64,000 bases of DNA from Candidatus Omnitrophota bacterium (GTDB taxonomy: Bacteria; Omnitrophota; Gorgyraeia; Gygaellales; Profunditerraquicolaceae). The translations under genes and the position numbers were made by a program. A model generated the notes under the pieces. The model was not told the DNA's origin. It saw nothing but the letters and a program-made list of their open reading frames with translations, and searched no databases. The stretch spans positions 21,625 through 85,624 of the forward strand of contig JALOQK010000002.1 in NCBI GenBank assembly GCA_025453395.1, in the 5' to 3' direction. Below are positions 4,589-60,860 of the stretch, piece by piece (within the stretch, counting starts at the first letter, position 1; every line of letters starts with the position of its first letter).

Positions 4589-4598
4589 AGATATAATA

Positions 4599-4691
4599 TC
4601 AGCTATCAGCTTTCAGCTAAAAGCGTAAAGCTTAAAGCGAAAAACTAAAACTTAAAGCGAAAAATGAAAAGCAAAAACTAAAAGCGAAAAA
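4599..4691. repeat. heptanucleotide-periodic simple repeat (ATCAGCT / AAAAGCG / TAAAGCT units)
   Basis: Sequence reads atcagct atcagct ttcagct aaaagcg taaagct taaagcg aaaaact .. with strict 7-nt phase. Intergenic between dus and the next gene. The same units recur inside recG. Confidence 0.8.
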
Positions 4692-4697
4692 GGAAGA

Positions 4698-5182: not shown

Positions 5183-7321
5183 ATGGAAAATAATCCGCTT
5201 GAGCAGTCTGTCCAGTATCTAAAAGGGGTCGGCCCGGCACGCCTTAAATTGCTGCAGAAAATAGGGGTTAATTCTTTAGAAGACCTTTTGTATTATTTCC
5301 CCCGCCGCTATCAAGACCGCAGGAATTTTATTCCAATAGCAGCTTTAGAGCAAGGCCAAGTTCAGGCAATTAGAGCTAAGATTATTTCTTGTTATCAGCG
5401 CAGTTCTTTTTACCGCCGCGGGTTTAAGATAACTGAAATCGTTGCCGCAGATAAAAGCGGGAAAATTACCTGTGTCTGGTTTAACCAGCCCTACATTAAA
5501 AATTATTTGAAGATCGGCGAGGAAGCTATTTTCTACGGCAGAGTGGGGAGTTTTGGCAAGAAACTGCAGATGCACTCTCCGGAATTTGAAGTCTTATCTG
5601 TTGGCGAAGATGCGCAAGCAAATAGCGACAGCCTTATGCCGGTGTATTCTTTGCCGGATTCTATCACCCAGAGATATTTCCGGGATCTTATAAAATTAGT
5701 GATAGATGCCTATTTGCCAAAGCTGCATGATTTTATTCCTTATAGTATGCGTCAGCGTAATAATTTGTTAAACCTTGCCAAGGCGCTGGTAAGTATTCAT
5801 TTTCCTGCTGATCAAGAGGCGCGGGCCTTAGCCTATCAACGCTTGGCCTTTGATGAATTCCTGTTTTTCCAAATACCGCTGGCTTTAAGAAAACATCGCA
5901 GGAAAGAAGAACAGGGTATCGCCCATAAAACAGAAGGGGGCTTAGTGGATTGTTTCCTGCGCGGGTTAGGTTTTAAGCTAACTTCTTCGCAGGAGCAGGT
6001 TTTAAAAGAGATCAAGAAAGATATGGCCAGCCCTCAAGTTATGCAGCGGCTTTTACAGGGCGATGTTGGTTCAGGCAAGACCGTGGTAGCTACAGCTTCT
6101 TGCCTAATGGCTGTTCAGGGAGGCTTTCAGGCGGCATTTATGGTGCCTACGGAAATCTTGGCGAGACAGCATTATGAGAAAATAAGCTCTCAGCTTTCAG
6201 CTATCAGCCGTCAGCCTTCAGCTATCAGCCGTCAGCCTTCAGCTATCAGCTTTCAGCTAAAAGCAATAAAAGTGGCTTTACTAACTAGTGCGTTGAATAA
6301 GAAAGAAAAAGAGAAAATATATCAAGGCATAAAAAATGGAGCAATAAATTTGGTGATTGGCACGCACGCTTTACTGCAGCAACAGGTTGAATTTAAGAAT
6401 CTGGGGCTGGTGGTTATTGATGAACAGCATAAATTCGGCGTGGGTCAGCGAGCGTTATTGCCGCAAAAAGGAAAAAGCCCGGATATTCTGATCATGACCG
6501 CCACCCCTATCCCGCGGACTTTAGCAATTACCATTTATGGGGATTTGGATGTTTCTGTTATTTCGGAGTTACCTGCGGGCAAGGGCAAGATTAAGACCAT
6601 GAATTTTTCCGTCGGGCAAGAAAAAGCGGCCTATAGTTTGGCTAAAAAAGAGCTTGAGGCAGGCCGTCAGGCGTATATTATTTATCCGGTTATTGAAGAG
6701 TCTTATGCTTTGGATATGGAGGGCGCCAAGAAAAAATACGCGCAATTAAGTTCCGGAGATTTTAAACAATACCGCTTAGGGCTTATCCATGGCAGGCTTG
6801 ATGACAAACAGCAGAATCAATTGATGCAGGATTTCCGGGATAAGAAATTAGACATTCTTGTTTCTACCACTATTCTGGAAGTCGGGATTGATATCCCCAA
6901 TGCTACCTGTATAATCATTGAGAATGCCGAACGTTTTGGCTTGTCGCAGTTACATCAATTGCGGGGGCGGGTAGGAAGAGGCAAAGATGACGCCTATTGT
7001 TTATTGATTGCCAATACTTCTACTGTTGAAGCCAAGGCGCGCATGGAGGCAATGGTAAATTATAGCGATGGTTTTCATATTTCCGAGGAAGATTTAAGAA
7101 TCCGGGGGCCGGGTGAATTCTTCGGCATGCGCCAGCATGGCCTAAGCCAGCTTAAGATCGCCAATCCTCTGACCCAGATGCAGCTTTTAAAGAAGGCGCG
7201 TGATGAGGCACTGCGTTTGATTAATGACGATGCGGGGCTTGTTGCCAAAGACAATGTCTTGATCAGGCAGCGTTTATTCAAGGCCTTTCCGGAATATGAA
7301 AATTTAATACTCACGGGATAA
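5183..7321 (+). CDS. recG: ATP-dependent DNA helicase RecG
   Basis: Wedge domain, Walker A GDVGSGKT, DEQHKFGV, and QLHQLRGRVGRG helicase motif VI. Carries an in-frame repeat-derived insert at 6181..6262. Confidence 0.9.
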   Translation: MENNPLEQSVQYLKGVGPARLKLLQKIGVNSLEDLLYYFPRRYQDRRNFIPIAALEQGQVQAIRAKIISCYQRSSFYRRGFKITEIVAADKSGKITCVWFNQPYIKNYLKIGEEAIFYGRVGSFGKKLQMHSPEFEVLSVGEDAQANSDSLMPVYSLPDSITQRYFRDLIKLVIDAYLPKLHDFIPYSMRQRNNLLNLAKALVSIHFPADQEARALAYQRLAFDEFLFFQIPLALRKHRRKEEQGIAHKTEGGLVDCFLRGLGFKLTSSQEQVLKEIKKDMASPQVMQRLLQGDVGSGKTVVATASCLMAVQGGFQAAFMVPTEILARQHYEKISSQLSAISRQPSAISRQPSAISFQLKAIKVALLTSALNKKEKEKIYQGIKNGAINLVIGTHALLQQQVEFKNLGLVVIDEQHKFGVGQRALLPQKGKSPDILIMTATPIPRTLAITIYGDLDVSVISELPAGKGKIKTMNFSVGQEKAAYSLAKKELEAGRQAYIIYPVIEESYALDMEGAKKKYAQLSSGDFKQYRLGLIHGRLDDKQQNQLMQDFRDKKLDILVSTTILEVGIDIPNATCIIIENAERFGLSQLHQLRGRVGRGKDDAYCLLIANTSTVEAKARMEAMVNYSDGFHISEEDLRIRGPGEFFGMRQHGLSQLKIANPLTQMQLLKKARDEALRLINDDAGLVAKDNVLIRQRLFKAFPEYENLILTG
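6181..6262 (+). repeat. heptanucleotide repeat array embedded in frame in recG
   Basis: Sequence cagcttt cagctat cagccgt cagcctt cagctat cagccgt cagcctt cagctat cagcttt cagctaa, encoding ..SQLSAISRQPSAISRQPSAISFQLKA.. The 21-nt (3-unit) block is duplicated. The terminal agctatcagctttcagctaaaagc is identical to the intergenic element at 4599. Confidence 0.85.
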
Positions 7322-7324
7322 CAG

Positions 7325-7879
7325 ATGCGTATTACAAGCGGCATTTACAAGAATCGTAAGCTTAAGATGCCTGCAGGTATTCGTCCGACACAGGAGAAAA
7401 CCCGCAAGGCCATATTTGATATTATGGGCGATATATCGGGCTTGAGGTTTTTGGAGCTTTTTGCCGGGTCAGGGGCGGTAGGTTTTGAGGCTTTGTCGCG
7501 GCAAGTTGAAGAGGTGGTCTTAGTGGAAGATAGCCGCGCCTGCCAAAAGGTGATTCAGGAGGCTATCCGGGATTGGAAAATCCCGAATTGTTCGCTTTTG
7601 CCTTTGCCTGTTCCCAAAGCCATAGAAATACTGGTGAAAAATAACGATAGATTTGATATTATCTTTATGGACCCCCCGTATTACCAGGATTGGGCAAAAA
7701 AAATCTTGCAAAGCCTATCCTCTTGTGATATATTAGCGCCCAATGGTTTTGTGGTTGCCCAGACGCACAAAACAGAGAATCTCCCTGATTGTCAGGGAGG
7801 TTTAATTTTGTTTAAGCGCTCTGTTTATGGAGATACGGTTCTTTGGTTCTATAAAAACAAGTTAAATGAGGTTACATAA
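7325..7879 (+). CDS. rsmD: 16S rRNA (guanine966-N2)-methyltransferase RsmD
   Basis: ..KTRKAIFDIMG.. LFAGSGAVGFEALSR .. DPPY motif. Confidence 0.8.
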   Translation: MRITSGIYKNRKLKMPAGIRPTQEKTRKAIFDIMGDISGLRFLELFAGSGAVGFEALSRQVEEVVLVEDSRACQKVIQEAIRDWKIPNCSLLPLPVPKAIEILVKNNDRFDIIFMDPPYYQDWAKKILQSLSSCDILAPNGFVVAQTHKTENLPDCQGGLILFKRSVYGDTVLWFYKNKLNEVT

Positions 7880-7960
7880 GGTTACATGGGGTTAATTGAG
7901 GTTGCCTTTGCAACGTCATGTAACATCATTTAACATCATGCAACTTCAGATAACCTATAT
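7855..7960. repeat. palindromic element built from ~10-bp GGTTACATGA-type units (family B, copy 1)
   Basis: Left arm gttaaatgag gttacataag gttacatggg gttaattgag gttgcc, then its approximate reverse complement tgcaacgtca tgtaacatca tttaacatca tgcaacttca. Confidence 0.75.
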
Positions 7961-11104: not shown

Positions 11105-11139
11105 GCTGATAGCTGATAGCTGATGACTGAAAGCTGATA
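11105..11139. repeat. heptanucleotide repeat (GCTGATA units)
   Basis: gctgata gctgata gctgatg actgaaa gctgata. This is the reverse-complement orientation of the ATCAGCT family. Confidence 0.75.
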
Positions 11140-14466: not shown

Positions 14467-15762
14467 ATGGGCTATACAATAGCTGAAAAAATCTTAATGG
14501 CGCACGCCGGAAAAAAGGATATTCATCCGGGTGAGTTTATTGAAGCCAAAGTCGATATCGCTTTAGGCAATGATATTACCGCGCCTTTGGCGATTGAAGA
14601 ATTTAAGAAGACAGGAGTAAAGAAAGTATTCGATAATAAGAAAATAGTTCTGGTGCCGGATCATTTTGCCCCTGCTAAAGATTTAAAAAGCGCCAATCAA
14701 TGCAAAATTCTGGCTAATTTTGCCCAAGAGCAAAAGATCAAGAATTATTTTGAGGTAGGTTGTATGGGCATAGAGCATGCCCTCTTGCCGGAAAAAGGGA
14801 TAGTCGGGCCCGGATATTTGGTGATCGGGGCCGATTCTCATACCTGTACCTATGGGGCCTTAGGCGCTTATGCTACTGGGGTTGGCTCAACGGATTTAGC
14901 GCGCGCTTTCATAGACGGGGAATGCTGGTTTAAAGTTCCGGCATCGGTTAAATTTGTTTATAAAGGAAAATTAAAGAAGTGGGTTGGCGGGAAAGACCTT
15001 ATACTTTTTACTATTGGGCAGATCGGTGTTGATGGGGCCCTGTACAAAGCAATGGAATTTACCGGCCCTGTTATAGATAAGCTTCCCATGGATGATCGTT
15101 TTTCTATGTCAAATATGGCCATAGAAGCCGGAGCCCGGGCAGGGTTGATTAACCCGGACGAGATTACTTTAAGTTATATGGAAGAAAGTCAAAAGTCAAA
15201 AGTCAAAAGTCAAAAGTTCAGAGCAAAAGTTAAAAGCTTAAGATCAGATGATGATGCTGTATATGAGAAAGTTTATGATTGGGATGTGAGTAATTTAGAG
15301 CCGCAGGTCGCCTGTCCGCATTTACCAAGCAACACTAAACCTGTGGGAGAGTTGAGTAATATTACTGTTGACCAGGTAGTCATTGGTTCTTGCACTAACG
15401 GCAGGATTGCTGATTTGCGCACCGCAGGCAAGATTCTAAAGGGCAAGAAAATAAAACCTGGTTTGCGTTTGATTGTTATCCCGGCAACCCAGAAAATCTA
15501 TCTGGAAGCAGTCCAAGAGGGTTTGGCAGAAATATTTGTCAAAGCAGGCGGGGTTTTCTCTACGCCTACCTGCGGCCCGTGTTTAGGCGGACATATGGGT
15601 ATTTTAACTGAAGGCGAAAGGTGCCTGGCCACAACCAATAGAAATTTTATTGGCAGGATGGGGCATCCTAAATCCGAGGTTTATTTGTCAAGCCCCGCGG
15701 TCGCCGCCGCAGCGGCAGTTACAGGAAGGATTACGCATCCCGAAGAAATAAATAAACAATAA
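14467..15762 (+). CDS. leuC: 3-isopropylmalate/homoaconitate-type dehydratase large subunit (short archaeal-type LeuC)
   Basis: [17 protein letters not shown].., aconitase-family Cys ligands (GSCTNGR, CGPCLG). A small-subunit gene follows. Carries an in-frame heptamer repeat insert. Confidence 0.75.
15183..15240 (+). repeat. AAAAGTC heptamer repeat array in frame inside leuC
   Basis: aaagtc aaaagtc aaaagtc aaaagtc aaaagtt cagagca aaagtta aaagctt, encoding ..[18 protein letters not shown].. Confidence 0.8.
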
Positions 15763-26693: not shown

Positions 26694-27875
26694 ATGAAGT
26701 TAGAGGAAGTATTTCAATCTTACAGCGATTTTATAATGCCTACTTACGCTAAAACCCCGCTTGTCTTTGTCAAGGGCAAGGGCAGTTTTCTTTGGGATAT
26801 CCATAGCAAGAAATATTTGGATTTTTTCCCGGGATGGGGCGTAGGAAGCATGGGCCATTGCCATGCTAAGGTGGTGCAGGCGATAAGGGAGCAGGCCGCG
26901 AAACTTATTTTTGTGCCTAATAATTATTATACCCTGGCGCAGGCAAAGTTAGCAAAAAAACTTGTTAGTTTAGCCTTTCCCTCTAAAGTATTTTTCTGCA
27001 ATTCTGGGGCTGAAGCCAATGAAGCCGCGATAAAGTTTAGCCGTAAGTTCGGCAATGGAAGATATGAGATCATAACCTTTCAGGATTCTTTCCACGGGCG
27101 CACCGCTGGGGCATTGGCTGCCACGGGCCAGAAAAAATATCAAGAAGGTTTTCAGCCGCTTTTATCAGGCTTTAAGCTGGCGCAGTTTAATAATTTAGAT
27201 TCGGTGAAATCTCTGATTAATCCCGATACGGTTGCGATTATGTTGGAGCTTATCCAGGGAGAGGGCGGAGTTAACGTTGCCGGTTTAGATTTTATCAAGG
27301 CCTTAAGGGAAATTTGCGACCAGAATAAGCTTCTTTTGATCGTGGACGAAGTGCAAACTGGGATTGGCAGGACGGGGAAGTTTTTTGCTTATCAGCATTA
27401 TGGGATAATCCCTGATATAATTACTTTAGCCAAGGCCTTAGGCGCAGGTTTGCCGATAGGGGCTATGTTAGTCAAAAAAGAAATTGCTGATATATTAACA
27501 TCCGGAACACACGCTTCTACTTTTGGCGGGGGTGCGGTAGTTTGCGCCTCAAGCCTGGCGGTTTTAAAGGCCATGCGCGATGAAGATATTCTTAGTAATG
27601 TGCGTGATGCAGGGGAATATCTTTTTGAGATGGCTTTTAAGTTAAAGGAAAAATATAATATTATCCAAGATGTCAGAGGCAGGGGATTGATGCTAGGCAT
27701 ACAGCTTAAATGCCCGGGTAAGGATATTGTTGCAAAATGCATGCAGAAGGGGCTTCTTATTAATTGCACGCATGATACAGTATTACGGTTAATGCCGGCC
27801 CTTAATGTTACCAAGAAACAGATAGGCCAGGGGATGAGAATATTAGAAGACGTAATTAAGAAAGCGAAAAGTTAA
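26694..27875 (+). CDS. argD: acetylornithine aminotransferase
   Basis: Class III aminotransferase: DEVQTGIGRTG, PLP-Lys in TLAKALGAG. Sits inside the arg gene string. Confidence 0.85.
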   Translation: MKLEEVFQSYSDFIMPTYAKTPLVFVKGKGSFLWDIHSKKYLDFFPGWGVGSMGHCHAKVVQAIREQAAKLIFVPNNYYTLAQAKLAKKLVSLAFPSKVFFCNSGAEANEAAIKFSRKFGNGRYEIITFQDSFHGRTAGALAATGQKKYQEGFQPLLSGFKLAQFNNLDSVKSLINPDTVAIMLELIQGEGGVNVAGLDFIKALREICDQNKLLLIVDEVQTGIGRTGKFFAYQHYGIIPDIITLAKALGAGLPIGAMLVKKEIADILTSGTHASTFGGGAVVCASSLAVLKAMRDEDILSNVRDAGEYLFEMAFKLKEKYNIIQDVRGRGLMLGIQLKCPGKDIVAKCMQKGLLINCTHDTVLRLMPALNVTKKQIGQGMRILEDVIKKAKS

Positions 27876-27900
27876 AAGCGTAAAGCGAAAAGCGAAAAAA
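27871..27900. repeat. AAAAGCG heptamer repeat
   Basis: aaaagcg taaagcg aaaagcg aaaaaat. Confidence 0.7.
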
Positions 27901-27923
27901 TAAAACAAATACGAGGCAAAGAC

Positions 27924-28844
27924 ATGAAAAAAGATTTAATTTCCATAAAAGATTTATCATCTGCAGAGATAAATCAGCTTTTTGATTTGACTGCGCAATT
28001 AAAAAGGAACAAGAATAAATTCTCTCGGGTTTTAAGCGGAAAGACTTTGGCCCTGATTTTCCAAAAGCCCTCAAACCGCACGCGGGTTTCTTTTGAAGTG
28101 GGGATGTATCAGCTGGGAGGAAATTCCATATATTTATCCCCGGGAGAGATAAACCTTGGGGTCAGGGAATCTATCCCGGATGCGGCTAAAACTCTTTCCC
28201 GTTATGTGGATGGGATTGTTTTAAGGACTTTTGCGCATAAAAACGTGATTGAATTGGCTAAATATGCGGATATCCCTGTAATAAACGGTTTATCGGATTT
28301 TTCTCATCCCTGCCAGGCGCTGGCGGATATCTATACGGTTGTTGAGAAATTAGAAAATGTGAAGGGAAAAACCTTAGCTTATGTGGGCGACGGAAACAAT
28401 GTTTGTAATTCGCTTTTATTTATTTGCGCCAAGACCGGCATGAACATTAATGTTGCTGCGCCTGTTGGCTATAAGCCTGATAGAGCGGTGGTGGAGCAAG
28501 CAGAAAATATCGCCCTGCCCAATAAAAGCAAAGTTAGCATTTTTAGCGATCCCTTAAAGGCTGTTAAGGGCTCGGATGTTATTTATACCGATGTTTGGAC
28601 CAGCATGGGGCAGGAAAAAGAGGCCTTAAACAGGCTCAAGGCTTTTAAAGGCTTTCAGATTAATCAGCGGCTTTTGGCGCATGCCAAGAAGGGTGTCCTT
28701 GTTATGCATTGCCTGCCCGCGCACAGAGGCGAGGAAATTACCGGAGAAGTTATGGACAGCAAAAATTCAGTAGTTTTTGATCAGGCGGAAAACCGCATGC
28801 ACGTGCAGAAAGCAGTGTTGATTAAACTGTTAAAACAGCTGTAA
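27924..28844 (+). CDS. argF: ornithine carbamoyltransferase
   Basis: STRTR carbamoyl-phosphate motif and the HCLPAHRGEE motif. Confidence 0.85.
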   Translation: MKKDLISIKDLSSAEINQLFDLTAQLKRNKNKFSRVLSGKTLALIFQKPSNRTRVSFEVGMYQLGGNSIYLSPGEINLGVRESIPDAAKTLSRYVDGIVLRTFAHKNVIELAKYADIPVINGLSDFSHPCQALADIYTVVEKLENVKGKTLAYVGDGNNVCNSLLFICAKTGMNINVAAPVGYKPDRAVVEQAENIALPNKSKVSIFSDPLKAVKGSDVIYTDVWTSMGQEKEALNRLKAFKGFQINQRLLAHAKKGVLVMHCLPAHRGEEITGEVMDSKNSVVFDQAENRMHVQKAVLIKLLKQL

Positions 28845-28892
28845 GCTGTAAGCTATAAGCTGTAAGCTGAAGACTGATAGCTGACAGCTGGA
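28836..28892. repeat. GTAAGCT / GATAGCT heptamer repeat
   Basis: gtaagct gtaagct ataagct gtaagct gaagact gatagct gacagct. Overlaps the argF stop. Confidence 0.75.
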
Positions 28893-30084: not shown

Positions 30085-30200
30085 AAAATGGGTGAGGTTG
30101 TATAAGGTTACATGAGGTTAAATGATGTTACATGAGGTTGCAAAAAGCTTTAAAGCAACTTCATGTAACCTTCGGTAACTTCATGCAACTTTAATTAACC
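30085..30200. repeat. family B palindromic element (copy 2)
   Basis: aggttacatg aggttaaatg atgttacatg aggttgcaaaaagc ttt aaagcaactt catgtaacct tcggtaactt catgcaactt. Confidence 0.75.
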
Positions 30201-32856: not shown

Positions 32857-33689
32857 GAAAAATAAAATTTACAAAAATGGTCGCATCTGGTAATGATTTT
32901 GTCGTTGTTGATAAGCTTAAAGCTTATAGCTTAAAGCTTAAAGCTTTTTCTAAATCTATTTGTGACAGAAAATATGGAGCTGGGGCTGATGGGCTGCTAA
33001 TTTTGTCACAGCTTGTATTATCTCATGGCAAGCGTTCCGCTTCCTGCGGTATGCGTATTTTTAATGCCGATGGCTCTGAAGCCCAGATGTGCGGCAATGG
33101 GGCTAGGTGCGCGGCGTTGTATTTCAGCTGTCAGCTGTCAGCTGTCAGCTGTCAGCAAAAGATAAAAATAGAAACCAAAGCAGGGGATATACATTCTTTA
33201 GTAAACGGTAATAATGTAAAGATTAAATTAACTGATCCCAAAGGTTTAAGATTAAACATTCCAATTAAGCTTAATGGCAGAACGCTTAAGGTTAATTTTA
33301 TTAATACCGGGGTCCCGCATGCGGTTATTTTTGTGGAGGGCCTTGATAAAATTGACGTGGATAATTTAGGCAGAGCTATTCGTTATCATCAGGTTTTCAA
33401 GCCGCAAGGCGCGAATGTAAATTTTGTGGAAGTTTTGAATAATACTTCTATCAGGATAAGGACTTATGAAAGAGGCGTAGAGGGCGAAACTTTAGCCTGC
33501 GGTACCGGCTCTGTTGCTTCGGGTTTGCTTACCGCTTACAACTTACCGCTTACAGCTAATATTATAAATGTCCACACCCGGGGCGGCCAGATATTAAAAG
33601 TTGATTTTCAAAAATCAGGCGATGGTTTCAAGGATGTCTGGTTAGAGGGCAAAGCAAAAATTGTATACCAAGGAGAATACTATGTTTAG
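32853..33689 (+). CDS. dapF: diaminopimelate epimerase
   Basis: ..ASGNDFVVVD.. N-terminus, GNGARC catalytic Cys motif, second Cys in ..LACGTGS... Contains two internal heptamer repeat arrays. Confidence 0.85.
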   Translation: MRKIKFTKMVASGNDFVVVDKLKAYSLKLKAFSKSICDRKYGAGADGLLILSQLVLSHGKRSASCGMRIFNADGSEAQMCGNGARCAALYFSCQLSAVSCQQKIKIETKAGDIHSLVNGNNVKIKLTDPKGLRLNIPIKLNGRTLKVNFINTGVPHAVIFVEGLDKIDVDNLGRAIRYHQVFKPQGANVNFVEVLNNTSIRIRTYERGVEGETLACGTGSVASGLLTAYNLPLTANIINVHTRGGQILKVDFQKSGDGFKDVWLEGKAKIVYQGEYYV

Positions 33690-34557
33690 AGGATCAATTG
33701 TGGCTATGGTCACGCCATTTAAAGACGAAAAAATTGACGAGAAGAGATTCAGAAGTTTAATTGATTTTCAGATTGAAAACGGCACTTCCGGCATCGTCCC
33801 CTGCGGCACTACAGGTGAATCCGCGACATTGTCGGTTAAAGAGCACCAGCGTTTGATTGAATTGGCCATAGAGCAGGTGAATAAGCGCGTGCCGGTAATT
33901 GCCGGTACAGGTTCCAACTCTACGGATGAGGCGATCACTTTAACGAAGCACGCTTTTCATGCGGGCGCAGATGCTTCTTTGCAGGTAGCTCCGTATTATA
34001 ACCGCCCTACCCAGACCGGGTTATACCAGCATTTTAAGAAAATAGCCCAAGCAGTAGATATCCCGATCATTGTTTATAATATTGCTTCCCGCACAGGGGT
34101 TAATATCGAGCCGGAAACTATCGCGAAGCTGGCCTCTGAATGTAAGAATATTGTAGGAGTGAAAGAGGCATCCGGAAATCTTGAGCAGATGTCTCGTATC
34201 TTAAGTCTTACTCCAGCAGGATTTATTCTTCTTTCAGGAGATGATGCGCTCACACTTCCTGTTTTAAGCATCGCAGGAGCAGGGGTAATTTCTGTGGTGG
34301 CTAATATTGTTCCAAAAGATGTTTCCAGGCTGGTAAATGTCTTTGAAGATGGCGACATCCAAAAGGCGCAAGATATGCATTACAAACTTTTTCCGCTTGT
34401 CAAAGCTATGTTTATTGAAACAAATCCTATACCGGTTAAAACCGCGATGGGCCTGTTAAAGATGTGTTCACCGGAACTTCGTCTTCCGATGTCAGAAATG
34501 CTTCCTGACAATGTAGAGAAACTTAAGAAGGCGTTGAAAAATTACGGGTTATTATAA
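33682..34557 (+). CDS. dapA: 4-hydroxy-tetrahydrodipicolinate synthase
   Basis: MFRGSIVAMVTPF .. GTTGES; Schiff-base Lys in GVKEASGN. Start chosen at MFRG (aggaga ribosome-binding site 6 nt upstream). Confidence 0.85.
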   Translation: MFRGSIVAMVTPFKDEKIDEKRFRSLIDFQIENGTSGIVPCGTTGESATLSVKEHQRLIELAIEQVNKRVPVIAGTGSNSTDEAITLTKHAFHAGADASLQVAPYYNRPTQTGLYQHFKKIAQAVDIPIIVYNIASRTGVNIEPETIAKLASECKNIVGVKEASGNLEQMSRILSLTPAGFILLSGDDALTLPVLSIAGAGVISVVANIVPKDVSRLVNVFEDGDIQKAQDMHYKLFPLVKAMFIETNPIPVKTAMGLLKMCSPELRLPMSEMLPDNVEKLKKALKNYGLL

Positions 34558-34660
34558 AGGAAGTTAAATAAGGTTACATGAAGTTACCGTAGGTTAAATT
34601 AGGTTGCTTAAAAGCTTTTTGCAACTTCATTTAACATCATTTAACCTCAATTAACCTTAA
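34558..34660. repeat. family B palindromic element (copy 3)
   Basis: aagttaaata aggttacatg aagttaccgt aggttaaatt aggttgcttaaaagctttttgcaa cttcatttaa catcatttaa cctcaattaa. Confidence 0.75.
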
Positions 34661-37826: not shown

Positions 37827-38650
37827 TGCGAAAGAAAATAAGGATCGGGATTGTCGGATGCGGAGCGATCGGCTCTTCTTTGGCAAAAGCTATAACTAAA
37901 GAATTTTCTGCAGATGCTTACGTGTCGGCATTGTTTGACACTCAGCCCGATAAGGCGCAGCTTTTATCTGTGGCGCTTCGCAAAGATATTTCTTTGGCAG
38001 TTTCTTCCCTTAAAGACCTGATCAGCTTCTCTGATTTTATAATAGAATCTTCAAGCGCTCAGGCCTCAGGCGGAATCTGCCGTCAGGCTGTCAATAACGG
38101 CAAGGATATATTGGTGATGAGTGTGGGAGGGCTTCTGAAGAGTTATCCGCGGATATTTAATTTAGCTAAAAAGAAAAAGGTGAAAGTCTATATCCCAAGC
38201 GGAGCTATCGGCGGGGTTGATGCCTTAAAGGCCCTGAATCTGTCAGATGTCAAAAAGGTCACGCTTACTACCACTAAAAACCCTATCGCTTTTAAGAAAG
38301 TGGAATATTTGATTAAGAAGCGCATTGTGCTTTCCGAAATTAAGAGTAAAAAAGTTTTATTTTACGGAAACGCTTTAAGGGCAGTGCGTTGTTTTCCGCA
38401 GAATATCAATGTGGCGGCTGTTTTATCATTAGTTGGAATAGGCGCGAAGCAAACAAAAGTAAAGATCGTTGCTTCTCCAAAGGTTAACAAGAACATACAT
38501 GAAGTGCAAATAATTTCCCGGGCCGGTAATTTTTATAGCCGTTCGGAGAATGTATTGCATCCGGGCAACCCAAAGACCAGCTACTTGGCTTTTTTATCGG
38601 CAAAGGCGCTGTTGCGCGATATTTTTCTGCCGGTTAAAATAGGCACATAA
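37826..38650 (+). CDS. nadX: L-aspartate dehydrogenase candidate
   Basis: IGIVGCGAIGSSLAKAI Rossmann N-terminus, ~270 aa, C-terminal ..HPGNPKTSYLAFLSA... A family-level guess only. Confidence 0.5.
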   Translation: MRKKIRIGIVGCGAIGSSLAKAITKEFSADAYVSALFDTQPDKAQLLSVALRKDISLAVSSLKDLISFSDFIIESSSAQASGGICRQAVNNGKDILVMSVGGLLKSYPRIFNLAKKKKVKVYIPSGAIGGVDALKALNLSDVKKVTLTTTKNPIAFKKVEYLIKKRIVLSEIKSKKVLFYGNALRAVRCFPQNINVAAVLSLVGIGAKQTKVKIVASPKVNKNIHEVQIISRAGNFYSRSENVLHPGNPKTSYLAFLSAKALLRDIFLPVKIGT

Positions 38651-38820
38651 TAGATGTTAAATGAAGTTACATGAAGTTAAATAAGGTTAAATGAAGTTGC
38701 TCGAAGAATGTTACATGAAGTTGCATGAGGTTACATAAAGTTACATGACGTTGCAAAATAATTTCTTTTATGCAACCTCACGTAACATCATTTAACCTCA
38801 TGCAACCTCAATTAACTTCA
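38651..38820. repeat. family B palindromic element (copy 4, longest)
   Basis: At least eight direct units (gttaaatgaa gttacatgaa gttaaataag gttaaatgaa gttgctcgaa .. gttacatgaa gttgcatgag gttacataaa gttacatgac gttgcaaaataatttcttttatgcaa), then inverted units cctcacgtaa catcatttaa cctcatgcaa cctcaattaa. Confidence 0.8.
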
Positions 38821-38845
38821 AAAAGAGAGGGGGTGAATACAGAAT

Positions 38846-39088
38846 ATGGCGAAGAAATTAGCGAAGGTCGGTATCAAGAGGGAAAAAGGTTTCCTCTATT
38901 ACGTCGACAAGCAAGGTGACATTTCCTGCGCGAAGATGGCCAGAGGCAACAAAAAAGGCGGAAGCCCCAAGAAAGTTGCTAAATGCGGCATCAAGAGACA
39001 GGAAGGTTACTTGTATTTCGTTGACAAAAATGGAGACATCTCCTGCGCGGTAATGAAAAGAGGCGGGAAAAAGAAGAAAAAGAAGTAA
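38846..39088 (+). CDS. small highly basic protein made of two tandem ~33-aa modules with a poly-Lys tail
   Basis: Module 1 AKVGIKREKGFLYYVDKQGDISCAKMARGNKKG. Module 2 AKCGIKRQEGYLYFVDKNGDISCAVMKRGGKKKKKK. Ribosome-binding site gagagggggtg upstream. Confidence 0.5.
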   Translation: MAKKLAKVGIKREKGFLYYVDKQGDISCAKMARGNKKGGSPKKVAKCGIKRQEGYLYFVDKNGDISCAVMKRGGKKKKKK

Positions 39089-39099
39089 AACAAAAACAA

Positions 39100-39165
39100 G
39101 GGGACGGTTCTATTTTTAAATAACTATTAAAGGTAGAAAAATAGAACCGTCCCCAAGTTTTCTTT
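39100..39165 (+). terminator. long hairpin terminator after the small basic gene
   Basis: 18-bp perfect stem ggggacggttctattttt / aaaaatagaaccgtcccc followed by a T-rich tract. Confidence 0.65.
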
Positions 39166-39170
39166 CTAAT

Positions 39171-41996
39171 ATGACTTCCAATATCATCATTCGCGGCGCC
39201 AAGGAACATAACTTAAAAAACATTTCTTTAGAGCTTCCGCGCAATAAATTGATTGTGGTTACCGGTTTATCCGGCTCAGGTAAATCAAGCCTTGTGTTTG
39301 ATACTATCTATGCCGAAGGCCAGCGCCGCTATGTGGAAAGCCTTTCCAGCTACGCCCGGCAGTTTTTAGGTCAGCTTCAGAAACCGGATGTGGAGTATAT
39401 TGAAGGCCTTTCTCCGGCAATTGCTATTGAACAAAGGACTGCTGGCGGTAACCCCCGTTCCACGGTAGCTACCCAAACCGAAATCTACGATTATTTGCGC
39501 CTTCTTTTTGCGCGTATCGGAGAGGTATCCTGTTATCAATGCGGCAGGTTTGTGAAGCGCCAGAGCGCCCAAGAGATCGTCCAGCAGGTTATGGAATTAG
39601 GCGAAGGCGCAAGCATTCAGATTTTAGCAAAAGTAATAAGCGGTAGAAAAGGGCAATATCGGCAGGAGTTTTCAAATCTTAAGAAGGCAGGTTTTATCCG
39701 CGCGCGCGTCGATGGTAAAATATATGAGTTGGATCAAAAAATAAATTTAGATAAATATAAAGCGCATAACATAGAAGTTCTGGTAGACAGGCTGACCATT
39801 GCGCCGGCTGTAAAGCCGCGGCTTACTGATTCCATAGAAACCGCGTTAAAGGCAGGCCAAGGCATTGTGGTTGTTGCCGCCAAGCTTTCTAGCGGTAAAG
39901 AAGCCGAATCAGTATATAGCCAGCACTATGCCTGCACAAACTGCGGCATAAGTTATACGGAAGTCCAGCCGCGCATTTTTTCTTTTAATTCTCCTTATGG
40001 GGCCTGCCCGGAATGTAACGGCTTGGGTACAAAATTTGAGTTTGACCTGGATTTGATCATCCCGGAGAAAGATAAATCTATCAATCAGGGCGCGCTTGCC
40101 GTCTGGAGGAGAGGCGGACGAGGCTATATTATGTATTACCGCTGGCTTTTGCGCGAGTTATCGCGCGAACTGGGGTTTAGTCTGGACACGCCTTTTAATA
40201 AGCTTAAGAAAGACACCCAGAAAGCGATCCTTTATGGTACGGATATCGAAATCGGCAGTAAGCCTTTTGAGGGGGTTATCCCGCACTTAGAAAGGCTTTT
40301 TAGGGACACCGACAGCGATTATTTAAAGCATGAAATATCCAAATTTATGTCTACGCTTGCCTGTCCGGGCTGTAATGGCGCGCGCCTTAAGAAAGAAAGC
40401 CTCAGCGTTAAGATAAAGGGCAAGAATATTTGGGAAGTAGCTCAGATGCCGATAAATAAGGCAAAGGAATTTTTCTCTTCCCTTAATTTAAGCGCCAAAG
40501 ATAAACTTATTGCCGCAGAATGCTTGAAACAGATAAATCAGCGTTTGCAGTTTTGTATTGATGTGGGGCTTGATTATTTAACTTTAGAGAGAAAAAGTTC
40601 CACTCTTTCCGGAGGAGAGGCGCAGCGAATCCGGCTTGCCACTCAAGTGGGTTCGCGCTTGGTAGGAGTTTTGTATGTTTTAGACGAGCCCAGTATCGGC
40701 CTGCACCAGCGGGATAATATTAAGCTTCTTTCAACATTGGAATCTTTGAGGGATTTAGGCAATACGGTATTAGTGGTGGAGCATGATGAATATACCATAA
40801 GAGCCGCTGACTATGTTGTGGATTTAGGCCCGGGCGCGGGGCTTCATGGAGGGCATGTAGTTTTTGCCGGTACCAATAAACAATTGCTGGAGAATAAACA
40901 GTGCTTAACCGCTAAATATTTACGCCGCGAATTGGATATTCCCATTCCAGAAAGCCGCCGCACTTTTGATCCTAATAGGGCCATTGAAATTAAAGGCGCC
41001 CGGCAGCATAACTTAAAGAATATTGATGTCAAATTTCCCATAGGCGCTTTTATTGCTGTGACAGGCGTTTCCGGTTCGGGGAAATCAACGCTTATAGAGG
41101 ATATACTGTATCGGGGGTTGAATCAGAAGATCTACAGTTCCCGCGAGAAACCCGGAGCGCACGATGAACTATTAGGGGCAGACCTTATAGACAAGGTTAT
41201 TGTCGTGGATCAGTCGCCTATTGGAAGAACGCCCCGTTCCAACCCCGCTACTTACACAGCAGTGTTTAGCCATATCCGTGATTTATTCAGCCGGCTTCCG
41301 GAAGCTAAGATGCGCGGATATAAGCCGGGAAGGTTTTCTTTTAATGTTAAAAGCGGGCGCTGTCAGGCATGCATGGGAGATGGAATCAAGAAAATAGAGA
41401 TGCATTTCTTGCCGGATGTCTATGTGAAATGCGATATCTGCAAGGGCAGGCGTTTTAATGATGCTACTTTAGAGGTTAAATATAAAGGAAAATCCATTGC
41501 TGATGTCTTGGAGATGACCGTCGAAGAAGCGGTTGTATTGTTTGAGAATATCCCGGTAATTAAAAATACCCTGTCATATCTGTATGATGTGGGTTTGGAA
41601 TATGTTCAATTGGGCCAGTCCTCCACTACTCTTTCCGGAGGCGAGGCGCAAAGAATTAAGCTTGCCAGTGAATTAAGCAAGCGTTCAACCGGGAAGACCT
41701 TATATATACTTGATGAGCCGACCACGGGCTTACATTTCGCGGATGTGCATAAGCTTATTACTGTGCTGCAGCGGCTGGTGGATAAAGGCAATACGGTTAT
41801 TGTTATTGAACATAATTTGGAAGTAGTAAAATGCGCGGATTATATTATTGATTTAGGGCCTGAAGGCGGCGATAAGGGGGGAGAGCTTGTTTTTTGCGGA
41901 ACCCCGGAAGATTTAGCAGGGTCAAAGAAATCCTATACGGGAGAGTTTTTAAGAAAGATATTGAAGGCGGGAAAAGGAAGTGATATAGTGAAATAA
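39171..41996 (+). CDS. uvrA: excinuclease ABC subunit A
   Basis: Two ABC ATPase modules ([20 protein letters not shown]), zinc fingers, LSGGEAQR signatures. 941 aa. Confidence 0.95.
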
Positions 41997-42000
41997 GTAA

Positions 42001-42030
42001 AAAGTCAAAAGTAAAAAGTCAAAAGTAAGA
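42001..42030. repeat. AAAAGTC heptamer repeat (intergenic)
   Basis: aaagtc aaaagta aaaagtc aaaagta agaag. Confidence 0.7.
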
Positions 42031-42044
42031 AGATTAAATTAAAA

Positions 42045-44552
42045 ATGAAAAGAAAGAATTTTATAATAAATATATTAATCACTCTAGGGGTGTTTCTATT
42101 TTCTAGTGTATACTGCGTAGCTTCTTATGCCCAGACTCAAGCTCAAAACTCCGAAGACAAAGAAGAAGAGGCGCTTTTTGTCGCCAAAAGAGCTTTGGAA
42201 GACGGATTTTATGACGTTTCTTTGGAGTTGTCAGAAAGGTTCCTCAAGAATTATCCGCAATCTGCCAAGCTGGCCAAAGCCCACCTTATCATCGGGCAGT
42301 CGTATTTCTATAAAAACGATTTTATTGCTGCTTTGCAGAAATTTGAATGGCTTATACAGCAGCCTTTTGCATCCGAGGTTAAAGATGAGATAATTTACTG
42401 GATAGCGGAAGTGCATTTCCGGGGAAATGATTTTATCAAGGCATCCTCTTATTATAAACAGATCGTGGATGGCTATCCTAATTCCAAATATCTGGGATTG
42501 GCGTATTATTCGCTTGGTTGGTGCGATTTTCAGGCTCAGGAATATAAGAGTGCCCTTTCTTATTTTAAAACTGTTGAAGAAAAATTCCCCCAGGATACTT
42601 TCTGGAGGGAGGCAAGTTTTAAAATATTCGAATGTTTATATAACTTAAAAGATTACAGGCTTCTTAAGGAGAAAATTGACGCGAATGTCAAGTCGTACTC
42701 CAAAGATAGCGCTAAGTCTGGTTACCTGTATTTTTATCTGGCAGAATCAGATTATTATTTAGGCGATTTTGCCGCTTCTCTCGAGGCTTACCAGAAGGTT
42801 TTATCTTTATCAGGCGACGATAAGATGCAAGGTTTATCTAAGCTGGGCATGGGATGGGCGTATCTTAAATTAAAAAAATACAAAGAGGCAAAAGAGGTTT
42901 TAGAAAGCATCCCTTTTGATAAGCTTGAGAAAGCCAGCCAAAATGCCTTGTATCTTGCCAAAGGCATTCTTATGATAGAGACAGAAGAATATGGCCAGGC
43001 AAGGGATATTTACGACAAGCTTATTCTGGAGGCTTCTGATCCGGTAGTGCTTATCCAGGGGTATATAGGAAAAGCCGATGCCTTGTATAACTTGGGGGAT
43101 TATAAGGGTGCGGTTGATGTTTATCAGGAGGCGCAGGGGAAATTGCCAGAAGGCCTCTCAAGCGACATAAGCGATAAATTTCATTATGGTTTTGCCTGGG
43201 CCTATCTTAAAGAAGGAAAATTCAAGGCAGCCATAGGCCAGTTCCAGAGGATAGTTAAACAAAGCGAAGATAAGACGATCAAAGTCTCCGCGCTGTGCCA
43301 AATAGGAGATGCTTATTTTGAGCAGGGTGACTACGCAAAAGCGCAGGAAGCCTATAATAGCATACTTAAAGATTACCGGGGAAGTTTCTATGAGGATTAT
43401 GTGCAATATCAGCTGGGCCTGACTATGTTAAAAACTTCTAATTACGATTCCGCGGCGGTTGTTTTCCAGAACCTGAAAAGCAAGTATCCGGATTCCAAAC
43501 TTCTTGATGATGCTTCTTATGCTTTGGGTTTAAGTTATTTCCAGCGTGAAAATTATCAGGCCAGCAAAGAAATTTTCTCTAAGTTCCAAGATGAATTTAA
43601 AGACAGCCCATTAGCTTCTCAGGCAATGTATTTATGGGCAGTAAGCCTGTATAACCTGGGCTCTTACAATGAAGCGATAGAGGTATTTAAGAATATTATT
43701 CGCGTTTACAATCAGGATATCCAGCTTCTTCAAAAATCAGAATATCAAATAGCGGATTGCTTGTACCATCTGGGCGACGAGAAAGAGGCAATGCAGCGTT
43801 TTAATGCCTTGCGCACAAAATACCCGGATTCATCGCTTACCTCGGAAGTGGTTTGGTGGCTGGCGGAATATTATTACCGCAATAATGACTTGAATATGGC
43901 TAAGCGCTATTTTGCTTCATTGACCCAGGATTTTCCTAAAGCAAGTTTAGCCCCCAATGCTTACTATGCGTTAGGCGCCATTTATGACCAGGAAGGCAAT
44001 TACGACGAAGCGATTAAGAATTTTCAAAAGGTCGTAGAGTTTGGCAAATCTGAATTATCTGCCACCGCTTCAGTAGCCATAGCAGACCTTTATTTGAAAG
44101 AAAAAAAGACTGAAACGGCGGTTAAGGCCTACAACCAGGTCTTGCAAGATTATCCCAATCTTTCAGGCCTTGTTTATCCTAAGATCGCTCAAGGCTATCA
44201 GGACCAGGGTAATTACGATGAGGCGGTGAATTTCTACCATAAGAGCCAGGAGGTGGTCCCTTCAAGCGAGATGGCCTCAATCCAGTTTAAAATAGCCGAG
44301 ATTGATGAAGTAAGAGGCAGGTATGACCAGGCTATTGAAGAATATTTGAAGCTGGCTTATTTGTATCCCGATGATGTAAAATTAAGCCTAAAGGCGCTTT
44401 TAAGGGTAGCGGCCATTTACGAGAATAAGGAAGATTTTGAGCAGGCAGTCAGCACTTACAAAAAAATATCCGCGATGAATGTGGATGAAAGCAAATATGC
44501 CGATGAAAGAATAGGTTTTATCAATAAACAATATCTAAAAAAGGAGCAGTAA
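42045..44552 (+). CDS. secreted tetratricopeptide (TPR) repeat protein
   Basis: Signal peptide, then numerous 34-aa TPR-like repeats (..AYYSLGWCDFQAQEYKSALSYFK.., ..GDYAKAQEAYN..). 835 aa. Sits immediately upstream of exbB-exbD. Confidence 0.7.
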   Translation: MKRKNFIINILITLGVFLFSSVYCVASYAQTQAQNSEDKEEEALFVAKRALEDGFYDVSLELSERFLKNYPQSAKLAKAHLIIGQSYFYKNDFIAALQKFEWLIQQPFASEVKDEIIYWIAEVHFRGNDFIKASSYYKQIVDGYPNSKYLGLAYYSLGWCDFQAQEYKSALSYFKTVEEKFPQDTFWREASFKIFECLYNLKDYRLLKEKIDANVKSYSKDSAKSGYLYFYLAESDYYLGDFAASLEAYQKVLSLSGDDKMQGLSKLGMGWAYLKLKKYKEAKEVLESIPFDKLEKASQNALYLAKGILMIETEEYGQARDIYDKLILEASDPVVLIQGYIGKADALYNLGDYKGAVDVYQEAQGKLPEGLSSDISDKFHYGFAWAYLKEGKFKAAIGQFQRIVKQSEDKTIKVSALCQIGDAYFEQGDYAKAQEAYNSILKDYRGSFYEDYVQYQLGLTMLKTSNYDSAAVVFQNLKSKYPDSKLLDDASYALGLSYFQRENYQASKEIFSKFQDEFKDSPLASQAMYLWAVSLYNLGSYNEAIEVFKNIIRVYNQDIQLLQKSEYQIADCLYHLGDEKEAMQRFNALRTKYPDSSLTSEVVWWLAEYYYRNNDLNMAKRYFASLTQDFPKASLAPNAYYALGAIYDQEGNYDEAIKNFQKVVEFGKSELSATASVAIADLYLKEKKTETAVKAYNQVLQDYPNLSGLVYPKIAQGYQDQGNYDEAVNFYHKSQEVVPSSEMASIQFKIAEIDEVRGRYDQAIEEYLKLAYLYPDDVKLSLKALLRVAAIYENKEDFEQAVSTYKKISAMNVDESKYADERIGFINKQYLKKEQ

Positions 44553-56680: not shown

Positions 56681-56900
56681 AAAGCGCAAAACTAAAAGCG
56701 CAAAGCGTAAATCGATAATCCAAAATTCAAAATTTTTAATTTTACGCTATAGTTTTACCTGCCTGCCGGCAAGGCAGGCGTTTTTCGCTTTACATTTTAC
56801 GCTATATAAGACAAAAATCGTCTAACTTTTATGTATTTGGCTGATAGCTGAAAGCTGATAGCTGATAGCTGAAAGCTGATATAATTTGACTGAACTTATG
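56681..56900. repeat. family A heptad-periodic palindromic element plus GCTGATA repeats (copy 1)
   Basis: aaaagcg caaaact aaaagcg caaagcg taaatcg ataatcc aaaattc aaaattt ttaattt tacgcta tag .., inner hairpin ctgcctgccggcaaggcaggcg, then gctgata gctgaaa gctgata gctgata gctgaaa gctgata. Confidence 0.8.
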
Positions 56901-59390: not shown

Positions 59391-59480
59391 AATTAAAAGC
59401 GCAAAGCGTAAAACGATAATCCAAAATTCAAAATTTTTAATTTTACGCTATAGCTTTTCGCTTTTCGCTTTACGCTTTTA
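59391..59480. repeat. family A heptad-periodic palindromic element (copy 2)
   Basis: aaaagcg caaagcg taaaacg ataatcc aaaattc aaaattt ttaattt tacgcta tagcttt tcgcttt tcgcttt acgcttt. Left and right arms are reverse complements. Confidence 0.8.
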
Positions 59481-59488
59481 GCTTATTT

Positions 59489-60724: not shown

Positions 60725-60860
60725 TTCAAAACTTAAAATTTTAAATTTTACGCTATAGTTTTACGCTTTGCGCTTTAAGTTTTTAGTTTTTAAGGTTTTG
60801 AATTTTTAATTATGGCTTTTAGCTCTTAGTTTTTAGCTTACAGCTTACAAGGAGGCTGAT
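60725..60860. repeat. family A element (copy 3) with core in both orientations
   Basis: ataattcaaaacttaaaattttaaattttacgctatag .. ttttgaatttttaattatgg (reverse complement of core) .. tagctta cagctta. Confidence 0.75.

Follow-up and report, generated by a model that had tools for sequence, protein, structure and literature searches.

What is the function of the short gene that lies immediately upstream of uvrA in the genome of a Candidatus Omnitrophota bacterium, and what does its strongly basic product bind? The gene is contained in a 64,000-nucleotide stretch of DNA (the window; NCBI GenBank assembly GCA_025453395.1, contig JALOQK010000002.1, positions 21,625 to 85,624 of the forward strand), whose own coordinates are used throughout. 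The coding sequence runs from 38846 to 39088 on the plus strand, with an ATG start and a TAA stop at 39086–39088, and specifies an 80-residue protein of 8.9 kDa with an isoelectric point (pI) of 10.19 and a net charge of +19 (21 Lys, 4 Arg and 6 acidic residues). The product quoted in an original prediction, made from the letters alone and giving about 30% Lys and Arg, was indeed the exact translation of the open reading frame (ORF), with 31% Lys plus Arg. A database entry that matches it at 100% is called 'hypothetical protein' in a Candidatus Omnitrophica metagenome-assembled genome. We found that the small gene is real and under very strong purifying selection, and that it belongs to a large unnamed family spread across several uncultured bacterial phyla and DPANN archaea. 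The ligand, binding mode and abundance of the protein we can only infer; the reading that we favour, tentatively and at a little less than an even chance, is that of a non-specific nucleic-acid-binding architectural protein, most likely acting on DNA.

Comparison with 45 orthologs gave ratios of nonsynonymous to synonymous substitution (dN/dS) of 0.007–0.149, mostly 0.03–0.07, with dN of 0.10–0.24; dS was saturated, and the ratio is given wherever it could be computed. The gene also keeps its place. The order dapA, dapB, an aminotransferase gene, folK, panC, an aspartate dehydrogenase gene, the small gene and uvrA is conserved between the window and related Omnitrophota genomes, and the small protein is 73–84% identical between them, whereas in these same genome pairs identity is 62–75% for UvrA, 52–75% for the aminotransferase, 43–78% for DapB and 41–59% for aspartate dehydrogenase. 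The small protein is therefore more conserved than UvrA, which places it among the most constrained proteins of the cell. Adjacency to uvrA was seen in 43 Omnitrophota-type loci; in L075/L076, uvrA flanks the small gene on its opposite side. No conserved operon partner was found outside the Omnitrophota, and in Marinimicrobia the gene is solitary, separated from unrelated genes by 100–390 nt on either side. On Woesearchaeota-type contigs (L036, L066, L067, L069, L074, L077 and L082) the small gene again has a conserved neighbourhood, consisting of genes for a Mre11-like phosphoesterase, HerA, an OapA-like GTPase, OapB and OapC; the Oap proteins are named after their association with the replication origin. 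The archaeal small genes are preceded, 50–80 nt upstream, by promoter boxes of the TTTATAAA type, resembling the B recognition element (BRE) and TATA box.

The extent of the family was then measured in three ways. By a word-indexed search the family comprises 1,435 clusters (90% identity). When 1.84 billion representatives were searched exhaustively with a profile, 1,024 clusters (50% identity) had E≤1e-3, of which 302 reached E≤1e-10, and a scan of one genome per GTDB species confirmed relatives in at least 557 species. Named hosts were Omnitrophota (many of them auto-labelled 'Planctomycetales'), Elusimicrobiota/Endomicrobia, Babeliaceae and Woesearchaeota/Nanoarchaeota; a Marinimicrobia (SAR406) subfamily of 75 residues accounts for a further 1,219 clusters. 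Every named member is annotated as 'hypothetical'. The Woesearchaeota/Nanoarchaeota members lie on genuinely archaeal contigs and are 60–71% identical to the window protein, which fits a ligand common to all cells. No match was found in cultured phages and plasmids by tblastn, and only 7 relatives were present among 2.9 million viral contigs of IMG/VR, indicating a cellular gene and not a gene of mobile elements.

The protein is built from two copies of one module, as had been proposed. At the DNA level, 38852–38955 and 38969–39072 are 71% identical at a distance of 117 nt, and at the protein level 21 of 29 residues (72%) are identical between the halves (E 2e-15). Module 1 (residues ~3–37; 38852–38955, plus strand) was delimited by the direct repeat, the AlphaFold strands and column conservation; its predicted strands cover residues 3–6, 16–20 and 26–30, and it contains a conserved loop, G-I-K-R-E-x-G, and a conserved hairpin, G-[YFW]-L-Y-[YF]-x-D-K-x-G-D-[VI]. 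Module 2 (residues ~42–76; 38969–39072, plus strand) has predicted strands at 42–45, 55–59 and 65–69. Between them lies a Gly/Lys-rich linker, N-K-K-G-G-S-P (residues 35–41; 38948–38968, plus strand), recognized from alignments and from a dip in the predicted local distance difference test (pLDDT) to about 80–88; it overlaps the last three residues of module 1 because the two boundaries were drawn from different evidence. The chain ends in the tail GGKKKKKK (39062–39085, plus strand), where model confidence is lower (pLDDT 60–67 in the last block). Across the family, G15/G54, Y18/Y57, D21/D60 and G24/G63 are invariant or nearly so, Lys or Arg occupies about eight positions per module in most members, and the linker takes the form R-G-x-K-K-G-G-x-P-K-K, linker and tail both being rich in Gly and Lys. 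The prediction of one Cys per module was wrong, as the protein has three (residues 28, 47 and 67). Cys28 and Cys67 occupy equivalent positions of the two modules, but Arg replaces them in 52% and 68% of diverse members, respectively, and position 47 is variable. Because most of the family has Arg in place of Cys28 and Cys67, the cysteines are unlikely to form a conserved metal or disulfide site and would be a peculiarity of the lineage. Inspection of the sequence showed no signal peptide in the window protein. The 64-kb window contains no further copy of the small gene; it has no HU gene either, which is uninformative for a piece of this size.

We found no known domain for the module, in agreement with the original prediction. 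The scans of curated libraries took in the window protein, 60 diverse members and the fused relatives. In Pfam the best score was 19.3 bits for DotY against a cut-off of 27, seen in 1 of the 60 diverse members, and this assignment was discarded as a chance match; in NCBIfam the best was 11.5 bits against a cut-off of 650, and PHROGs had no family for the module. Searches of the PDB, whether with the sequence itself or with profiles of the whole protein and of one module, returned only sub-threshold beta-hairpin look-alikes, which share an aromatic-aromatic-x-D-x-x-G hairpin (YWTD blades, choline- and glucan-binding repeats and, for the profile of one module, bL36). AlphaFold2 was unstable on a shallow alignment, with one of five models confident. 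With a diverse alignment of 60 sequences all five models agreed (pLDDT 86–88, predicted template modelling score 0.69) on three strands in each module, six in all, without any helix and with a less ordered tail. Foldseek searches with the confident model gave a best E of 0.9 in the PDB and of 0.5 in BFVD, with template modelling scores below 0.35, and nothing fell below E 0.5 when two models were compared with the PDB and one with BFVD. There was no Pfam or PDB match to HU/IHF, histone-fold, Alba or H1/Hc1 domains; for this reason, and because the model is all-beta while their folds contain helices, the protein is not placed in any of these families. Neither Sul7d nor Cren7 was among the best 50 Foldseek PDB matches listed, and the model is not an SH3-like barrel. 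The searchable literature on the peptide motif and on nucleoid proteins in Omnitrophota or DPANN held no description of the family.

Tails and fusion partners gave indirect hints of function. The tail is the most variable part of the protein, with 2–8 basic residues in most members. Tails of 30–70 residues, composed of AKKK, VKKK or ARRK repeats, occur in members from Woesearchaeota (L036, L077), from Endomicrobia (L056, L084) and from other sources (L048, L054, L024, P0160, P0265 and P0256). In L051, a separate ORF starting MAAKKKAKKAKKTA and preceded by a strong Shine-Dalgarno (SD) sequence lies directly downstream of the small gene, as though that genome encoded the lysine-rich tail in a gene of its own. 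Fusions were surveyed in the best 150 family representatives. Roughly half of these are free-standing proteins of about 75–95 residues, and about 15 more carry long Lys/Arg-rich tails. The module pair is found at the extreme C-terminus of ParB_N+HTH_ParB proteins (confirmed with Pfam for P0207 and P0246, recognized by inspection for P0220), at the N-terminus of an HNH nuclease (P0190) and, by inspection, beside a helix-turn-helix (HTH)-like C-terminal region (P0192). It also occurs with zinc ribbons, GAF and a prokaryotic RING domain (P0178) and in membrane proteins, namely DoxX (P0241), an OmpA-type protein (P0154), P0121, P0132 and P0213. Five proteins of about 170 residues (P0185, P0191, P0219, P0250 and P0254) consist of two modules, a lysine-rich linker and a C-terminal domain of about 80 residues that ends in PKKY and has no Pfam, NCBIfam or PHROGs match.

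How might such a protein act? The most likely target would be double-stranded DNA, bound in the manner of a nucleoid-associated (chromatin) protein. Each module of 33–39 residues would form a three-stranded antiparallel sheet that presents the conserved basic positions and a Tyr (K4, K7, K11, R12, K22, position 28, R33 and Y18 in module 1; K43, K46, K50, R51, K61, position 67, K69, R72 and Y57 in module 2), and the two modules together could make a pseudo-symmetric, bivalent and positive surface that touches the phosphate backbone. Electrostatic affinity may be increased by the flexible linker, rich in Gly and Lys, and by the poly-Lys tail, and the longer AKKK tails of relatives may confer more condensing power, like the C-terminal domain of histone H1. 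DNA is favoured as the ligand mainly because of the DNA-handling fusions and the H1-like tails. Neighbours related to DNA repair or to the replication origin (uvrA; herA, the Mre11-like gene and oapABC) were also counted for DNA, and at the gene level the features are those of the nucleoid-associated class: 80 residues, pI 10.2, a stand-alone gene, an SD sequence and a 3′ hairpin in 75% of loci.

Several observations weigh against this assignment. The fusions with DoxX, OmpA, GAF plus zinc ribbons and large membrane proteins point elsewhere, and they mean that the module could serve more generally to bind polyanions or proteins. Strong conservation and lysine-rich tails are also compatible with a role in RNA binding or at the ribosome, the synteny with uvrA and herA may reflect shared ancestry within each phylum, and Foldseek detected no resemblance to a known DNA-binding fold in the PDB or BFVD. 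A bolder form of the DNA reading, which we regard as possible and hold with clearly less than even confidence, is that the proteins constitute a previously undescribed all-beta chromatin family, with a new fold made from a duplicated three-strand module and shared, probably by horizontal transfer, between DPANN and Omnitrophota, Marinimicrobia, Elusimicrobiota and Dependentiae; the protein would then be a major architectural DNA-binding protein whose variable H1-like tails tune compaction.

The strongest competitor, unlikely in our judgement yet deserving weight, is that the same basic beta surfaces contact rRNA or mRNA and that the protein is a lineage-restricted ribosomal or ribosome-associated protein or an RNA chaperone. 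Lineage-specific ribosomal proteins are typically small, basic, conserved and lysine-tailed, and the present protein is small, very basic, extremely conserved and equipped with a lysine tail; furthermore, its conserved aromatics lie on a beta strand beside basic residues, and a single-module profile weakly matched three-stranded bL36 (E 0.3–0.6 over 17 aligned residues). Homology to a ribosomal protein had been named beforehand as an outcome that would contradict the original prediction, and none was found: the best bL36 match had an E of 0.3 and an hhalign probability of 16%, and identity with bL36 was rejected. The cold-shock domain or oligonucleotide/oligosaccharide-binding fold was likewise rejected, at an hhalign probability of 0.1% for both the module and the whole protein and with no Pfam cold-shock match; the bL36 and cold-shock sequences used for hhalign were entered by hand. 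Neither phmmer and profile searches of the PDB with the whole protein nor Foldseek returned a ribosomal protein, in none of the loci examined does the small gene lie among ribosomal-protein genes, and the best 150 representatives include ParB and HNH fusions and none to an RNA-related domain. In addition, archaeal and bacterial ribosomes differ in architecture, which is difficult to reconcile with a protein nearly identical in both domains.

An improbable explanation is that the module is a general cytoplasmic adaptor for another polyanion, such as acidic phospholipid or polyphosphate, or for a protein, the stand-alone form being a regulator or chaperone. The module pair is placed on predicted cytoplasmic ends of the five membrane proteins P0241, P0154, P0121, P0132 and P0213 and is combined with GAF and zinc ribbons in P0178, and its motif is like that of the YWTD and choline- or glucan-binding hairpin repeats, which have non-nucleic-acid ligands, although these matches are weak and lie far below significance. 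Such an adaptor leaves the H1-like tails and the ParB and HNH fusions unexplained. A regulator of one partner, moreover, normally has a conserved neighbour gene, and across phyla there is none.

We next consider the conjecture that accompanied the original prediction, namely that the protein is sequence specific and that its two modules read successive units of a 10-bp repeat (family B) or of heptamer repeats. The small gene does lie directly downstream of the longest family B array, as stated there. This array (38656–38820) is made of the unit GTTACATGAR, in about nine forward copies followed by about five inverted ones, and takes up the 195-nt interval that separates the small gene from the aspartate dehydrogenase gene; as RNA it would form a long imperfect hairpin (dG −48.7, z −4.7). 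Its position, the match of a 10-bp period to one helical turn and the internal duplication of the protein all speak for repeat reading. However, the window holds four such arrays, the others lying at 7861–7954, 30093–30199 and 34555–34657 in intergenic gaps unrelated to the small gene, and no 10-bp clusters were found, allowing up to two mismatches, in 94 related loci (822 kb), those of orthologs 87–90% identical included. In these orthologs only 32–62 nt separate the small gene from the aspartate dehydrogenase gene upstream, too little to accommodate an array. The exact pattern was absent from 84 related loci. Judged from these comparisons, the array is a genome-specific insertion that stands outside the conserved gene unit, and the protein family cannot have evolved to read it; furthermore, these repeats cannot be common to all the phyla and domains across which the protein stays almost the same. 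Recognition of tandem units is thus very improbable, while the broader claim of nucleic-acid binding keeps its plausibility from the ParB, HNH and HTH-like fusions and the AKKK tails. That the reading frame is a chance ORF or a decayed fragment without function, as its short length and bare 'hypothetical protein' annotation might suggest, is close to inconceivable given a dN/dS of mostly 0.03–0.07, thousands of homologs, a conserved SD sequence and 3′ hairpin and a confident fold prediction.

The repeats have some further properties of their own. Each 10-bp array has forward and then inverted copies and lies between co-directional plus-strand genes, and the unit is enriched about 13-fold in the window (0.55 hits per kb against 0.04 per kb in related loci, with up to two mismatches). 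The arrays resemble a genome-specific dispersed palindromic repeat with a period of one helical turn. Tandem arrays with a 7-bp period, the second repeat family mentioned in the original prediction, occupy many intergenic gaps of the window, with units such as AGCTTTC, GCTGATA, AAAGCGT and AAGTAAA; examples are found at 4597–4695, 6185–6259, 11105–11139, 15185–15236, 27861–27905, 28837–28890, 32913–32946, 33124–33156, 41995–42070, 56840–56881, 59435–59484 and 60747–60849. Throughout the window (1–64000) all plausible long ORFs are on the plus strand, and the few minus-strand ORFs of at least 110 codons all overlap longer plus-strand ORFs.

The signals around the small gene were examined in the window and in 76 homologous loci. 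The gene has its own ribosome-binding site, as predicted: a strong Shine-Dalgarno sequence, GAGGGGGTGA, read from the sequence at 38827–38836 (plus strand), lies 9 nt before the ATG, and a strong SD-like motif is present in 64 of the 76 loci. Eleven nucleotides after the stop codon there is a perfect 18-bp hairpin with a 19-nt loop (39100–39154, plus strand; arms 39100–39117 and 39137–39154), with a dG of −32.6 kcal/mol and a z of −8.5; none of 200 shuffled sequences folded as well. Most bacterial loci have a stable hairpin 3′ of the stop codon (median z −4.8, 75% below −2), and archaeal loci have T-rich tracts in its place. An SD sequence, a 3′ hairpin and a stand-alone gene are as expected of an independently and strongly expressed small gene, and this arrangement fits abundant expression.

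Does the hairpin terminate transcription, as had been supposed? It is followed by an interrupted T tract, TTTTCTTTCT (39158–39167, plus strand), and a simple terminator scan made no call because the tract is interrupted and set off from the stem by AAG; the 19-nt loop is also long for an intrinsic terminator. The ATG of uvrA is at 39171, 16 nt after the hairpin, and the intervening sequence (39155–39173) contains no recognizable SD sequence and has no room for a promoter, so that termination is probably incomplete. The strength of the hairpin and its occurrence in 75% of the loci support the terminator claim, whereas the closeness of uvrA and the recurrence of the stem sequence in unrelated contigs count against it; the structure is probably a partial terminator or a stabilizer of the mRNA 3′ end. 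A scan of 38400–39400 with Rfam gave only generic hairpin noise below threshold.

At least three hairpin sequence types were found at this position in orthologous loci. The outer 12 bp of the window hairpin form the box GGGGACGGTTCT/AGAACCGTCCCC, which also stands 3′ of the gene in L007 and L093/L094 and, with one mismatch, in L041. A CCCCTGTR...YACAGGGG hairpin with variable loop and flanks lies 3′ of the gene in 15 loci, within about 90 nt in L006, L008, L009, L010, L016, L017, L018, L020, L022, L029, L058, L063, L068 and L080 and about 160 nt downstream in L025; in each of these loci, which span about 10 kb, it is confined to the region 3′ of the small gene, although synonymous sites in the gene are saturated. 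L014, L049 and L027 have a CTGCCCTCTAAC...GTTAGAGGGCAG hairpin in common. An extended −10 box (TGnTATAAT) directly follows the hairpin in many ortholog loci. Interpretation of the CTGT...ACAG of the type-A ortholog hairpins as a LexA box was rejected, as the spacing is 14–20 nt and the downstream gene is not always uvrA.

The box of the window hairpin is not confined to this gene. An exact scan located the 12-bp sequence in at least 120 metagenome contigs (L095–L214), against a chance expectation of less than 1; they range from 28 to 71% GC and come from many habitats, and none of the 120 carries the small gene, for which reason the idea of a 3′ element private to the gene was rejected. A short variable inverted repeat brackets each box, complementary at 6 or more of 7 positions in 39% of cases versus 4% of controls, and the bracketed element can form either a single long hairpin or two short ones whose loops are complementary. 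Two or three copies are present on some contigs. In L147 the copies flank an IS200-like Y1 transposase gene (Y1_Tnp, confirmed by Pfam), and L198 has a copy immediately upstream of another gene, one that carries the sequence motifs of Y1 transposases; the 64-kb window has a single copy and no transposase. No mention of the box sequence turned up in the searchable literature. On this distribution, the hairpin may be a copy of a widespread palindromic element that resembles repetitive extragenic palindromic (REP) sequences with their associated tyrosine transposases (RAYT), and it may terminate or stabilize the transcript.

Our knowledge of prokaryotic chromatin comes almost wholly from cultured organisms and from HU, IHF, H-NS, Fis, Alba, histones, Sul7d and Cren7. 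The protein described here exceeds UvrA in conservation, occurs in hundreds of species belonging to abundant uncultured lineages (ocean SAR406, groundwater Omnitrophota and DPANN) and is nearly identical across the divide between bacteria and archaea, yet it is without a name, a domain model or a structural relative. If the protein is a nucleoid protein, it would add a new fold to the few building blocks of prokaryotic chromatin and offer a handle on genome organization in lineages of very small cells; if it is instead ribosomal or RNA-binding, its sharing across domains would be equally unexpected. In either case, a soluble-looking protein of 80 residues is readily testable.

The family matches no described small basic architectural protein in sequence or fold, and its resemblances to known systems are partial. 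YWTD (LDL-receptor class B) and choline- or glucan-binding repeats share the tight aromatic-aromatic-x-D-x-x-G hairpin, with individual matched stretches at E of at least 17, but they are extracellular and form propellers or solenoids, whereas the window protein has two modules, a strongly positive charge and no signal peptide. bL36 is similarly a basic three-stranded sheet of about 37 residues with a weak local match (K-x-I-x-R-x-G-x-L-Y-V-I); the module differs in having no zinc ligands and a non-ribosomal context. The canonical C-terminal domain of ParB/Spo0J is a dimerizing, non-specific DNA-binding domain, and its position is taken by the module pair and a basic tail in P0207, P0246 and P0220 (by inspection), although there is no sequence similarity and the module described here is usually free-standing. 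Variable Lys/Ala-rich tails like those of many members are known from HU/Hlp (MDP1, HupS), Ku and other DNA binders with PAKKA or AKKK tails, and chlamydial Hc1; such tails are found on mycobacterial HU, Ku and other DNA binders. In the tailed HU/Hlp- and Ku-type proteins, H1-like tails modulate DNA binding (PMC3553676, PMC3643593). The folded cores of these proteins are unrelated to the present one, and the tail of the window protein has only 6 Lys. The 7-kDa crenarchaeal chromatin proteins Sul7d (Sso7d/Sac7d) and Cren7 are built on one SH3-like five-strand barrel in place of a tandem three-strand module, gave no sequence or fold match (nothing below E 0.9 in Foldseek against the PDB) and belong to other taxa than the Omnitrophota, Marinimicrobia, Elusimicrobiota and DPANN hosts of this family. 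Nevertheless, like the protein studied here, they are all-beta, lysine-rich, 60–80 residues long and encoded by stand-alone genes, and a non-specific architectural role is presumed for both.

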